This document shows positions 2,459-37,378 of a stretch of DNA of 64,000 nt, in pieces (the first letter of the stretch is position 1; each line of letters starts with the position of its first letter). The notes beneath the pieces are model-generated. The model had not been told where the DNA came from, made no database searches, and saw only the letters and a program-made list of their open reading frames with translations. Source of the DNA: a virus (lineage: Duplodnaviria; Caudoviricetes); the IMG/VR virus record IMGVR_UViG_3300025924_000017, positions 64,001 to 128,000 of that record, one strand, 5' to 3'. A program made the position numbers and the translations under genes.

Positions 2459-4276
2459 ATGGCCGGTCAAGTCCCCAACTCCCAGAATATCTCACGCGTT
2501 GGCGTGGGCGCAGCCGACTCCACCACGGTCGCCGTCCATCCCGAATACTATTACTGGCTGAACGAGTGGCAGAAAATCCGCGACGTGATCGCGGGACAGC
2601 GCGAGATCAAGCGCAAAGGGCGCGTCTACCTCAAGGGTCCGCCGAAGATGGACTCGGACGACTACGAGACCTATCTCGAACGCGCCACCTTCTACAACAT
2701 GACCCGTCAGACCGTGAACGGCATGGTCGGTCAGGCGTTCTCCCGCGATCCGCTCATTCTCGGGATGCCGGATGATTTCAAGAATGCCATCCGTCTCAAG
2801 TTCGGCAAGGATGGCTCCGGTCACGTCGTCTTCGCCAAGACCGTCTTCAGCGAACAGGTGAGCATGGGACGCTACGGCGTTCTCGTCGATGCCCCGGAGA
2901 CGGCCTCGACCACACCGACCTCGTTCGCGGTCGGCTATGCCGCCGAGAACATCCTCGACTGGGACATTCAGGACGTCGGCGGCGAATACCAGCCGACGCG
3001 CATCCTGCTCCGCGAGTTCAAGCGCCAGCGCAGTCAGCCGCAGGCGCCCCAGAAGCCCGGCGCCCCCAACAAACGTGGCATGCCGGTCAAGCGCAGCGAT
3101 GCGCTCAGCACCGCACGTTACACCCAGCCCTCCGGCGCCTTCATCGAGAGCTTCACCTATGCGACGGTCTATCGCGACCTCGTGCTTGAAGCGCAGGACG
3201 CCGGACCGCCGGTCTACAAGCAGTACCTCTACAATGAATCGCCCACCGGCACGCCAGTGTCCGAGAGCACACCGCTGTTGCGCGGCCAACCGCTCAACTT
3301 CATCCCCTTCAAGTTCTTCGGCGCCCAGTACAACACCGCCGATGTGGAAGCGCCGCCGGTGCTCGACATCGTCGATCTCAACCTCAGCCACTATCGCACC
3401 TACGCCGAACTGGAGTGGGGCCGGATGTATACCGCGCTGCCGGTCTACTACGCGCCGGTCAGCGACGGCGAAGGCGCGGGCGATTACATCGTCGGACCTT
3501 CGGTCGTCTGGGAAGTCGAGCCGGATCAGGAACCCGGCATCCTCGAATACAAGGGCGACGGCCTGAAGACGCTGGAGTCCGCACTCCAGACCAAGGAACA
3601 GCAGATCGCCGCCATCGGCGGTCGCATGATGCCGGGCCACACCGCCAAGGGCTCCGCCTCGGCCGAAGAAACCGAACGCTCGGCCCAGAGTGAGCAGGCC
3701 CTCATCCTCCACGCCCTGCAAGCCTGCGAAGCCGGTATGACCGACTGCATTCGCTGGTGGCTGATGTGGCGCGACGTCGCGCTCGCCGACTCCGAGGATG
3801 TCGAATACTCCATGAACCGCATCTTCGGTGATGCGAGACTCGACGCACGTGCCATGCGCGTGTTCCAGCAGCTTCACGACGAAGGCAAGCTGCCCATCGA
3901 GATCATCTACAACGCCGTCATCGCCACCGGCTTCATGGACCCGGAGACGACGCTCGAAGAGTTCATCGACTCGCTCAACGATCCTGCGAACTTCCCGAAC
4001 AACCCGGACGTCGTGGCTCGCCAGCAGGGCTTCACCTCACGCCAGCAGCAACTCGATCAGCGCACTGTGGATCGCGAGGCTGGTATGCAGCAGCAGGAAA
4101 TCGATCTGCAAGAACGCGAGGTCGAGCTTATGGAGAACGCGCCGCCGCCGTTGCCACCCAAGACACCGAACCCGGCTGGCGCCGCACTCCCGGCGCGCGC
4201 CGGTGGACCGGTGCCGCCCAAGCCGGGCCGTGGCGGCAACAAGACTTCCAAGCCGAAACCGGGAGCAGGCGGTTGA
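2459..4276 (+). CDS. Portal protein (DUF4055-type)
   Basis: YLERATFYNMTRQTVNGMVG, GRYGVLVD, PPVLDIVDLNLSHYR motifs; ATG 2459 preferred because track start 2318 coincides with TTGACA. Confidence 0.9.
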   Translation: MAGQVPNSQNISRVGVGAADSTTVAVHPEYYYWLNEWQKIRDVIAGQREIKRKGRVYLKGPPKMDSDDYETYLERATFYNMTRQTVNGMVGQAFSRDPLILGMPDDFKNAIRLKFGKDGSGHVVFAKTVFSEQVSMGRYGVLVDAPETASTTPTSFAVGYAAENILDWDIQDVGGEYQPTRILLREFKRQRSQPQAPQKPGAPNKRGMPVKRSDALSTARYTQPSGAFIESFTYATVYRDLVLEAQDAGPPVYKQYLYNESPTGTPVSESTPLLRGQPLNFIPFKFFGAQYNTADVEAPPVLDIVDLNLSHYRTYAELEWGRMYTALPVYYAPVSDGEGAGDYIVGPSVVWEVEPDQEPGILEYKGDGLKTLESALQTKEQQIAAIGGRMMPGHTAKGSASAEETERSAQSEQALILHALQACEAGMTDCIRWWLMWRDVALADSEDVEYSMNRIFGDARLDARAMRVFQQLHDEGKLPIEIIYNAVIATGFMDPETTLEEFIDSLNDPANFPNNPDVVARQQGFTSRQQQLDQRTVDREAGMQQQEIDLQEREVELMENAPPPLPPKTPNPAGAALPARAGGPVPPKPGRGGNKTSKPKPGAGG

Positions 4277-29148: not shown

Positions 29149-29224
29149 ACCGGTTTAGCTCAGCGGTAGAGCGGTGGTCTCCAAAACCACGTCTGCGGAG
29201 GTTCGATCCCTTCAACCGGTGCCA
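29149..29224 (+). tRNA. tRNA-Trp(CCA)
   Basis: Full cloverleaf, loop CTCCAAA, encoded CCA. Confidence 0.9.
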
Positions 29225-29856: not shown

Positions 29857-30495
29857 ATGTCACACTACCCCAACTTCGGTATTCCTGCCGTCTACGTCGA
29901 TCCAAGCATCGTCAGCTTCACGGCGACACCGGCGCTCGCCGAGTTGGGCAGCACCGTCGATAGCGTTGTCCTCCGCTGGGACATCGCGAAGCAGCCGCTC
30001 TCGCTAATCGTTGACGGCGCAACGCTACCGCTGAACACACTACTCGTCACCAAAGAAGGCCCATTCACGACCAACCAGTCTTGGTCGATGAAAGCAGGCG
30101 ACGCCGAAGAGACGTTGACCGCGAAGACGACTCTTCAATTCGTCAACAAGCTCTACTCCGGTTTTGTCACCAGCGCGCCGACCAACAGCGCCGGTATTCT
30201 TGCGCTCGAAAACAGCACACTCAGCACCACACGCCAGTCGTCCGCGCAGATTGGCGCGCCAGCCGGTAAAGTTTGGTGCTACGCATATCCGAAGCGTCTC
30301 GGCACTGTGAAGATCGCGCGCGAAATTCCGAGCGGCGTGTGGGTGCCGACGACGTTGACCCAGAGCATGGTGTCCGGTACCGACTACACTGTCAGCGTCG
30401 TGTCATTCACGAATGCCTCCGGTTATACCGAGGATTATAACGTCGTGACCTTCAGCAATCCGCAGCCTGACAACACCGTGCTGACCTTCGGTTAG
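29857..30495 (+). CDS. Virion-like beta protein inside tRNA region
   Basis: ATG 29857; C-terminal half resembles C-terminus of ORF 54285. Confidence 0.7.
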   Translation: MSHYPNFGIPAVYVDPSIVSFTATPALAELGSTVDSVVLRWDIAKQPLSLIVDGATLPLNTLLVTKEGPFTTNQSWSMKAGDAEETLTAKTTLQFVNKLYSGFVTSAPTNSAGILALENSTLSTTRQSSAQIGAPAGKVWCYAYPKRLGTVKIAREIPSGVWVPTTLTQSMVSGTDYTVSVVSFTNASGYTEDYNVVTFSNPQPDNTVLTFG

Positions 30496-30505
30496 CACAT
30501 AATCG

Positions 30506-30532
30506 TTGACAATACCGCCGCGATGTGCGACA
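30506..30532 (+). promoter_or_regulatory. Promoter-like motif before leader 1
   Basis: TTGACAATACCGCCGCGATGTGCGACA. Confidence 0.6.
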
Positions 30533-30540
30533 ACCCCAAT

Positions 30541-30627
30541 ATGACGACTGTTCTTACCACGTCTGTCCTTCTTTCTCCCCGTGAGCTTGAACGCTCGACG
30601 GGTCGAGATATGCACGTCGTCGCCTAA
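30541..30627 (+). CDS. Putative leader peptide 1 (MTTVLTTSVLLSPRELERSTGRDMHVVA)
   Basis: 28-aa ORF between promoter motif and Glu/Asp tRNAs; stop lies in loop of a long hairpin. Confidence 0.55.
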   Translation: MTTVLTTSVLLSPRELERSTGRDMHVVA

Positions 30628-30669
30628 ACGGCACGACGTAAACTCCGCCCGTCCGAACTCAGCTTCTAT

Positions 30670-30745
30670 CCGGGCATCTTACTATCAGCGAAGTGGACGG
30701 GCTTTCAACCCGTAGAGCCGGGGGCAGCACCCGGTGTCCGGACCA
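30670..30745 (+). tRNA. tRNA-Glu(TTC)
   Basis: Loop CTTTCAA; T loop GGCAGCA; CCA. Confidence 0.8.
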
Positions 30746-30746
30746 T

Positions 30747-30822
30747 GCAAGATTCGTCTAGCGGTCTAGGATACTGGAACCTCACTCCAGTGACATCGGT
30801 TCAAATCCGTTATCTTGCGCCA
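30747..30822 (+). tRNA. tRNA-Glu(CTC)
   Basis: Loop ACCTCAC; TTCAAAT T loop; CCA. Confidence 0.8.
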
Positions 30823-30863
30823 AGCTGATCTCGATCCACCATCATCCGTACACTGAATAACTC

Positions 30864-30940
30864 GGGCGTGTAGCCGTCTGGTTGACGGCACCGGCTTGTC
30901 AAGCCGCCAGAGGCGAGTTCAATTCTCGTCACGCCCGCCA
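30864..30940 (+). tRNA. tRNA-Asp(GTC)
   Basis: Loop TTGTCAA; G73; CCA. Confidence 0.85.
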
Positions 30941-30941
30941 C

Positions 30942-31016
30942 GGTCTGTTCGTCTACCAGCTAGGATACTCGCCTGTCACGCGGGAGGAACGGGGGCAGCA
31001 CCCGTACAGATCGCCA
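30942..31016 (+). tRNA. tRNA-Asp(GTC)
   Basis: Loop CTGTCAC; T loop GGCAGCA; CCA. Confidence 0.85.
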
Positions 31017-31018
31017 CC

Positions 31019-31044
31019 TGTCATGGAAATTATGTTTCATGACA
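31019..31044. promoter_or_regulatory. 26-bp imperfect palindrome (operator-like)
   Basis: TGTCATGGAAATTATGTTTCATGACA. Confidence 0.5.
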
Positions 31045-31128
31045 CGGCCGTAACGTCGCAATTCTTGACTATGATGTCGCAAAGCGCGACAATTCTTGCT
31101 TCCCACAAATTTCCATCGGACTACGACA

Positions 31129-31332
31129 GTGGCGCAAGGCAAGAAGAACTTCATCCAAAAGGCGATCCCCAAGTCCCATCGCGGCGACCTTCACAAGGCG
31201 CTGGGCATTCCCAAGGGCAACATCATCCCGCACGACGTGCTTGAGGCAGCGGCGAAGCGGAAGGGCAAGGTCGGCGAGGAAGCGCGGTTAGCGCTCACCC
31301 TCGAAGGCATGCACCCCAGCGCGAAGAAGTAA
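31129..31332 (+). CDS. Small basic phage protein
   Basis: KNFIQKAI...GDLHKALGIP.G..IP...LEAAAKRKGKVGEEARLALTL pattern. Confidence 0.7.
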   Translation: MAQGKKNFIQKAIPKSHRGDLHKALGIPKGNIIPHDVLEAAAKRKGKVGEEARLALTLEGMHPSAKK

Positions 31333-31509: not shown

Positions 31510-31597
31510 ACATACCTTTCACAGAGGGCATGAGTGTAGGGCCGAAGCAGCGATGCTTCGGCCCTAAACTTTTTCTTGACCACTTTGTTTTGAATTG

Positions 31598-31624
31598 TTG
31601 ACTCGTTGTTCGTAATATGAGACA
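31598..31624 (+). promoter_or_regulatory. Promoter-like motif before leader 2
   Basis: TTGACTCGTTGTTCGTAATATGAGACA. Confidence 0.6.
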
Positions 31625-31669
31625 TACATCCCACACGGTGCTCATTCCGAGCGCCACGAAGGTTTGAAA

Positions 31670-31765
31670 ATGTTCGCAGTGCTTAAATCCAAGCCGAGTA
31701 CACATCTGGCATCCGCCAGCGTGCTGTCGCTCGCCTTGTCGCCTGCGACCACGCCAGCTATCTAA
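31670..31765 (+). CDS. Putative leader peptide 2 (MFAVLKSKPSTHLASASVLSLALSPATTPAI)
   Basis: 31-aa ORF; 26 of 30 post-Met codons are Pro/Thr/Lys/Leu/His/Ala/Ser, the amino acids of the downstream tRNAs. Confidence 0.75.
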   Translation: MFAVLKSKPSTHLASASVLSLALSPATTPAI

Positions 31766-31866
31766 AGCCGCGTCCGCGCGGCTCACGAGCCGCGCTCCAC
31801 CTTCTGAACTCCCCACACCCAGATCAGATCGCAGAGTTCGGCTCCTAAACAGGAGAACGAATACGT

Positions 31867-37044: not shown

Positions 37045-37071
37045 TTGACACGACTGCCGTGATATGAGACA
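37045..37071 (+). promoter_or_regulatory. Promoter-like motif before leader 3
   Basis: TTGACACGACTGCCGTGATATGAGACA. Confidence 0.6.
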
Positions 37072-37080
37072 ACCTTCTCC

Positions 37081-37179
37081 ATGAGCAAGACCTTTACCAA
37101 CGTGCAGCAAGTCGTCCGCCGGAATCGCTATATTCCGGGCGGGGCTTTCGCGCGTGTGGAGAAGGATCACGGGTTCTAA
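37081..37179 (+). CDS. Putative leader peptide 3 (MSKTFTNVQQVVRRNRYIPGGAFARVEKDHGF)
   Basis: 32-aa ORF; codons 7-18 all match downstream tRNAs; overlaps antiterminator strand. Confidence 0.8.
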   Translation: MSKTFTNVQQVVRRNRYIPGGAFARVEKDHGF

Positions 37180-37247
37180 ACCCAAAAGCTCTCCAAAGTT
37201 CTGCGAAAGGCCCGCCCGGTAAGCTCCGAGCGGGCCTTTTGCTTTTT
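37137..37247 (+). promoter_or_regulatory. Transcription attenuator (antiterminator/terminator)
   Basis: 37137-37151 GGGCGGGGCTTTCGC pairs (14/15) with 37203-37217, overlapping terminator AAAGGCCCGC/GCGGGCCTTT + T run. Confidence 0.8.
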
Positions 37248-37256
37248 GCCTTTCAC

Positions 37257-37342
37257 GCGGATGCGAACGAGAGGCGAGCGATTGACGGTCTGTAAAACCG
37301 TTGCCTATGGCTGAATGGGTTCAATTCCCATCATCCGCACCA
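37257..37342 (+). tRNA. tRNA-Tyr(GTA)
   Basis: Loop CTGTAAA; long variable arm. Confidence 0.9.
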
Positions 37343-37378
37343 AGGCAAAAACGAGAAGGTACGCAAGGAGAAGAATTT

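Follow-up and report, generated by a model that had tools for sequence, protein, structure and literature searches.

Does the short leader in front of the Glu/Asp tRNA genes of a phage tRNA island control these genes, and would it do so through the translation of a mini-ORF? The question is raised by a locus in a 64,000-nt stretch of viral DNA, positions 64,001 to 128,000 of the IMG/VR record IMGVR_UViG_3300025924_000017 (hereafter, the window). The source genome is a single contig of 225,611 bp with a G+C content of 59%. In the window, 28 tRNA genes were predicted with ARAGORN between positions 29149 and 38408, on the + strand throughout. This tRNA island is flanked by a thymidylate-kinase-like gene and a PhoH-like gene, and tail genes are located downstream. 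A first-pass annotation, made from the sequence alone, described a leader before the Glu/Asp block (leader 1) with a small ORF whose Glu and Asp codons match the tRNAs of this block. The features of this locus, and the two other leaders of the island, are as follows.

30506-30534, + strand: putative sigma-70-type promoter with a -35 hexamer, a 17-nt spacer and a weak -10 hexamer (the shared motif of the first-pass annotation)
30541-30627, + strand: 28-codon ORF with an ATG start and the stop codon UAA at 30625-30627, beginning 6 nt past the motif, without a Shine-Dalgarno sequence
30597-30653, + strand: three-tier hairpin of 57 nt, -29.6 kcal/mol, z = -4.0; its 5' arm is the last ~10 codons of the ORF
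30654-30669, + strand: spacer of 16 nt from the hairpin to the first tRNA gene, without a U-tract (1 U in the first 8 nt)
30670-30745, + strand: non-canonical tRNA-Glu(UUC), the first gene of the Glu/Asp block, with a cloverleaf fold and an encoded CCA
30747-30822, + strand: tRNA-Glu(CUC), detected by ARAGORN and Rfam
30864-30940, + strand: tRNA-Asp(GUC), detected by ARAGORN and Rfam
31598-31866: leader 2 of the tRNA island, with a small ORF before a tRNA block
37045-37247: leader 3 of the tRNA island, with a small ORF before a tRNA block

The promoter motif is non-random. Its strict form has two matches in the window, against none expected, and its loose form has four matches in the genome (30506, 31065 and 37045 on the + strand, and 63270 on the - strand); a variant of the motif is present at 31598. 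The copy at 31065 (31065-31332) precedes a gene for a small basic protein (63-78 residues), not a tRNA leader, and relatives of this protein were found on IMG/VR contigs without tRNA genes (L002-L006). The fourth copy (63270-63242, - strand) is distant from the tRNA island. The gene upstream of leader 1 ends at 30495, and no terminator is seen between 30495 and the leader-1 promoter.

The ORF was confirmed at the described distance from the motif. Its ATG is located 35 nt past the first base of the -35 hexamer, about at the predicted +1 position, and with this predicted transcript start the mini-ORF would be a leaderless mRNA. The 5' AUG of the window leader is accessible, with an unfolding cost of 2.2 kcal/mol. 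Leaderless translation in Caulobacter depends on an AUG at the very 5' end, preceded by few bases if any, and on an accessible start (PMC8459731). The AUG at the predicted 5' end and the low unfolding cost of leader 1 are features that favour this mode of translation. Another in-frame ATG, at 30523, lies 18 nt upstream and opens a 34-codon ORF. Because it is positioned inside the promoter spacer, this longer version would exist only on read-through transcripts from the upstream gene.

Near its 3' end, the ORF contains GAG at 30583, GAA at 30589 and GAT at 30607, as the first-pass annotation had noticed. These codons correspond to the tRNAs with the anticodons CTC (30747-30822), TTC (30670-30745, identified by cloverleaf fold only) and GTC (30864-30940). 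The Glu/Asp codons show no excess in the leader-1 ORF (3 of 27 codons against a background of 0.123, p = 0.66), and no tandem run is present. The ORF and its three Glu/Asp codons, taken alone, are not above chance.

Leaders 2 and 3 resemble leader 1 in the promoter class, the small ORF and the tRNA block behind it, and leader 3 also in the ATG start 7 nt past the -10 hexamer. They differ from it in codon content: 26 of the 30 codons of leader 2 are for the seven amino acids of its block (p = 3e-7), as are 17 of 31 for the amino acids of the block behind leader 3 (p = 0.02). A canonical terminator accompanies leader 3 in the window and in the Caulobacter phage CcrRogue, and leader 2 in CcrRogue. 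Leader 1 has neither the block-codon enrichment seen in both of the other leaders nor the canonical terminator of leader 3. Leader 1 is the weakest of the three, in line with the weaker codon match already remarked on in the first-pass annotation.

The stop codon of the ORF lies in the loop of a stem at 30614-30639, as had been proposed. This stem, with 10 bp, one bulged C and a 5-nt loop, is the top tier of the larger three-tier hairpin, whose fold energy is within the best 1% of the 62-nt windows of the genome. The sequence that follows was also correctly described as C-rich and free of an intrinsic terminator: the 30 nt past the stem contain 12 C and 4 G, and the terminator scan called none at the leader-1 hairpin. 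Canonical terminators are present elsewhere in the window, for example at 31537 and 37002. The whole leader of the window (129 nt) contains 43 C versus 28 G and has a pyrimidine-rich insertion of 21 nt.

The first gene of the Glu/Asp block, at 30670-30745, received no call from ARAGORN or Rfam; in the related phages described below, a canonical tRNA-Glu(UUC) is found at its position. A second Asp(GUC)-like gene (30941-31015), missed by both ARAGORN and Rfam, follows the tRNA-Asp and also shows a cloverleaf and an encoded CCA. These two genes have in common an unusual T-loop of 7 nt and a D-loop that lacks GG. The Rfam scan of 30300-31200 with E-values up to 10 revealed only the two canonical tRNAs, and no family for leader 1.

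The tail tube protein of the window phage is 54-60% identical to those of all four genera of Dolichocephalovirinae (the phiCbK-like phages of Caulobacter); with its counterpart in a CbK-like phage of Erythrobacter, the identity is 49%. On these identities, the window phage is placed as a distant relative of the phiCbK group. No closer relative was found among cultured phages, IMG/VR and metagenomes. CcrRogue was reached through a weak DNA match to leader 3. Its tRNA island shows synteny, with a Trp-Gly-Gly block and then, past a gap, the Glu and Asp tRNAs, followed by small CDSs, Pro and the rest. Directly before its tRNA-Glu gene, CcrRogue has the -35 hexamer, an ATG 39 nt on, and a 20-codon ORF with the stop codon UAA in a hairpin loop.

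The same module was found in phiCbK, Ccr5, Ccr10, CcrBL10, RBC11 and BL57, in CcrColossus and CcrPW, in the Brevundimonas phages Kabachok, Marchewka, Bambus, Kikimora and Gurke, and in the Bertelyvirus CcrBL1, which is the most diverged lineage. Nine lineages besides the window carry it before tRNA-Glu and tRNA-Asp genes, making ten with the window, and in all ten the order is kept: promoter, ATG, ORF, stop codon at the hairpin apex, tRNA-Glu, tRNA-Asp. In the relatives, the -35 hexamer stands at a matching distance from the ATG; in every lineage the ATG comes 35-39 nt past the first -35 base, at the predicted +1 to about +4, without a Shine-Dalgarno sequence. The start codon is AUG in all ten lineages, and the first 13 nt are nearly unstructured, with unfolding costs of 0.7-3.0 kcal/mol. 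The ORF has 20 or 21 codons in the relatives and 28 in the window, so that its length differs by multiples of three. The apex triplet is an in-frame stop codon in all lineages, UAA in nine and UAG in CcrBL1, and the loop bases beside UAA are variable. The first tRNA gene of the Glu/Asp block starts 3-16 nt past the hairpin. The mini-ORF is unannotated in all records examined. A leader-1-like element is absent in the more distant CbK-like phages RpAliso and vB_EliS-L02, in which the tRNA order differs.

The three-tier hairpin is present in all relatives and folds at -28 to -37 kcal/mol. In an alignment of seven sequences, RNAalifold indicated compensatory changes at two hairpin pairs, with three sequences altered at each, and two further pairs of the base stem change compensatorily between phiCbK and Kabachok. 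These compensatory changes, together with the folding kept in all versions, indicate that the hairpin is under selection. In phiCbK, Karma and Swift, the hairpin carries the annotation of a rho-independent terminator and a clear U-tract follows it; the U-tract is moderate in most other relatives, and absent in CcrBL1 and the window.

The possible loss of the Glu/Asp codons in homologous leaders had been named by the first-pass annotation as evidence against its reading. The comparison showed instead that the nine other lineages all preserve GAT and one or more Glu codons. The Asp codon GAT is retained in all lineages and falls 6-11 nt into the 5' arm; the distance from the last Glu codon to the stem is 7-12 nt. 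These two ranges leave out the minimum-energy fold of CcrRogue, which extends the stem. Two Glu codons spaced one codon apart, as in the window, are seen in eight relatives, and CcrBL1 has a single Glu codon.

To what extent is the window copy homologous to this module? A covariance model was built from eight relatives, with CcrBL1 left out, and it recovered CcrBL1 (36 bits, E = 3e-7) directly before an unannotated tRNA-Glu gene. Its score for the window copy is 4 bits, versus 36-104 bits for the relatives. The best match of an nhmmer profile of the relatives to the genome is at 30580-30630, which is the right place but weak (7.8 bits, E 0.19-0.69). The homology of the window copy is therefore argued from synteny, the shared architecture and a short core of similarity. 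On these grounds, leader 1 is best read as a divergent version of a module that CbK-like jumbo phages conserve. As this layout recurs in phiCbK-like phages, the module is probably a control element.

Nucleotide-level conservation extends beyond the Glu/Asp codons to the greater part of the ORF's 3' half, which makes up the 5' arm of the hairpin. The synonymous fraction is 0.29 in frame versus 0.28 and 0.37 in the other frames, which gives no coding signal, and the variable alignment columns are distributed over the codon positions at 9:9:11. Because the conservation is at the nucleotide level and without a coding signal, the Glu/Asp codons cannot be separated from structural constraint, and they may be kept for structure. 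The case for Glu/Asp codon sensing by leader 1 is thus thin. A Glu/Asp-sensing attenuator is partly supported: the comparison showed a conserved module that keeps its Glu/Asp codons, and it gave no codon enrichment, no coding signal and no terminator in the window.

Folding of nine nascent leaders predicted, in eight of them, a small upstream hairpin in competition for the 5' base strand. The repeated word behind it, an upstream copy of the 3'-arm word, is above shuffles in CcrRogue (p = 0.01) and phiCbK (p = 0.04) and not in the window (p = 0.8), and this anti-hairpin copy is a weak lead. Pairing of the leader with the downstream tRNA, hinted at by RNAfold, was rejected, as the duplex energies do not surpass those of dinucleotide shuffles (z -1.1 to +1.35).

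It is quite possible, if somewhat short of an even chance, that leader 1 works as a ribosome-dependent RNA switch before the Glu/Asp tRNAs. A host-type promoter would start the transcript at the AUG or a few bases from it, and the ORF of 20-28 codons would enter the 5' arm of the large hairpin and stop at its tip. As the last codons of the ORF are the 5' arm, a ribosome on them would exclude the hairpin. The hairpin would fold only without a ribosome on this arm, and translation of the mini-ORF would thus set the hairpin state. The share of the transcript that goes on into the Glu/Asp tRNAs, or is matured to them, would in turn depend on the hairpin state. A ribosome with the last Glu codon in its A site would have its leading edge a few bases into the stem, and one with the Asp codon there would cover the entire arm. 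Slow reading of the Glu/Asp codons would hold the stem open, because a Glu codon is just before the stem and the Asp codon is inside it.

The output of such a switch would depend on the phage. In the phiCbK-type phages, an open hairpin would lead to less termination and more tRNA-Glu/Asp, which would constitute a feedback loop; the output step there is probably intrinsic termination, judging from the U-tract after the hairpin. Since the window copy has no terminator, its hairpin must act otherwise or not at all, and the output may be weak, lost, or of another kind, for example processing, stability or Rho. Which way the switch would work is not derivable from the sequence: the 5' arm is covered as well when a ribosome waits at the stop codon, and therefore the outcome would hang on timing.

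The lack of a coding signature in a leader conserved at the nucleotide level would also be expected of a static structured RNA with an incidental ORF, acting as a leaky terminator or insulator, as an RNase site, or as a 3' protective stem for a leader released by RNase P. The missing Glu/Asp enrichment, the confinement of covariation to the hairpin and the variable U-tract agree with this explanation, which is possible, yet on the unlikely side. It leaves unexplained why all ten lineages begin the ORF with AUG, and with no other codon, at the predicted 5' end, why the apex stop stays in frame while changing from UAA to UAG, and why the lengths differ by multiples of three behind a low-structure 5' end. 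An ORF that reaches into the 5' arm and ends at the hairpin apex, as seen in all lineages, fits a general gauge of translation that is not codon-specific, similar to pyrBI/pyrE or to Rho protection, in which the tRNAs would be made only while the leader is translated. Any ribosome trailing the polymerase through the 5' arm would then stop the hairpin, or Rho, from acting. The missing enrichment suits such a non-specific gauge, as does a C-rich, G-poor leader with its pyrimidine-rich insertion. On the other side, a gauge of this kind gives no reason for GAT and a Glu codon at fixed positions, the codon contents of leaders 2 and 3 are block-specific, and a 129-nt leader followed by structured tRNAs is short for a Rho entry site; this explanation is considered unlikely.

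A product function of the ORF is less likely still. A functional micropeptide of 20-28 residues would be co-transcribed with the tRNAs and freed by RNase P, and the hairpin would stabilise its mRNA. The start and stop codons are conserved and the peptides of the different lineages resemble each other in the C-terminal half, but the conserved residues coincide with the paired 5' arm, no in-frame excess of synonymous change is seen, and the N-terminal half is variable, with an insertion of seven residues in the window copy. The micropeptide is accordingly rated as very unlikely.

The ribosome-dependent switch proposed for leader 1 can be compared with known attenuators. In the amino-acid operon attenuators (trpL, hisL, leuL, thrL and the ilvGMEDA leader), as in leader 1, a short ORF separates the promoter from the regulated genes, there is a hairpin overlapping or following this ORF, and cognate codons are present; the hairpin of phiCbK is even annotated as a terminator. 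Leader 1 differs from them in several respects. It precedes tRNA genes, not genes for biosynthetic enzymes, and it has no run or excess of regulatory codons. Its codons are at or inside the 5' arm of the hairpin and not in an upstream region 1, its stop codon is in the hairpin loop, the ORF is apparently leaderless, and the window copy has no U-tract.

Two other systems share particular features with leader 1. In the E. coli pyrBI (pyrL) and pyrE attenuators, the leader ORF reaches the terminator arm and a trailing ribosome blocks the hairpin, and the leader-1 ORF likewise runs into the hairpin arm. These attenuators sense the speed of the polymerase (the UTP level), not decoding; they have strong U-tracts and control protein genes. 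The pheM leader of pheST is an attenuator that controls a component of the translation machinery by the level of charged tRNA. This leader combines a Phe codon run with a canonical terminator, and its target is a synthetase, not tRNA genes. As the proposed switch, leader 1 would be of the same leader-peptide kind as pheM; it has no codon run, no terminator in the window, and stands before tRNA genes.

Control of tRNA genes is generally placed at promoters and processing. Literature searches found no translated leader before tRNA genes. The phiCbK genome paper reports no RNA elements besides tRNAs and does not discuss the leaders (PMC3556154). A feedback or tRNA-depletion sensor for tRNA genes would, if true, be undescribed. 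If the mini-ORF and the hairpin gate the Glu/Asp tRNAs, these phages would match tRNA supply to decoding demand, for example when host tRNAs are depleted. A wider, speculative reading, which is rather unlikely as a whole, is that CbK-like jumbo phages may make tRNAs on demand: a leaderless mini-ORF in each sub-operon would report the decoding speed of the codons of its block, and leader 1 would be the Glu/Asp gate, acting in the window without a terminator through hairpin-dependent processing or stability. The presence of the module in cultured Caulobacter and Brevundimonas phages makes these proposals directly testable in phiCbK and Caulobacter. If the static structured RNA is the true explanation, the locus still represents a conserved, unannotated structured element with a mini-ORF in about 30 deposited phage genomes.

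Several other elements of these tRNA islands were recognized during the analysis. Some of the tRNA-Glu and tRNA-Asp genes behind the module are unannotated in the deposited records of CcrColossus (L013:15054-15131), CcrBL1 (L034:3331-3407 and 3432-3507) and BL57 (L010, after 932). In CcrRogue, a skipping-rope RNA (RF02924, 45.8 bits, E = 1e-9) is located at L007:8935-9031, between the tRNA-Gly gene and the leader-1 promoter, inside a structured spacer of ~300-440 nt. The same spacer is present in CcrBL10 and, in a shorter form, in BL57. It is missing in phiCbK, and the window has an ORF for a tail-fibre-like protein of 239 residues there. In the Erythrobacter phage vB_EliS-L02, an array of 32 tRNAs ends with an unannotated permuted tmRNA with a tag peptide (L033:6739-7147), predicted by ARAGORN. 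In the window, a tRNA-Tyr-like gene that received no call is seen at about 37254-37343, immediately past the leader-3 terminator and ahead of the tRNA-Phe gene; its variable arm is long and its CCA is encoded.
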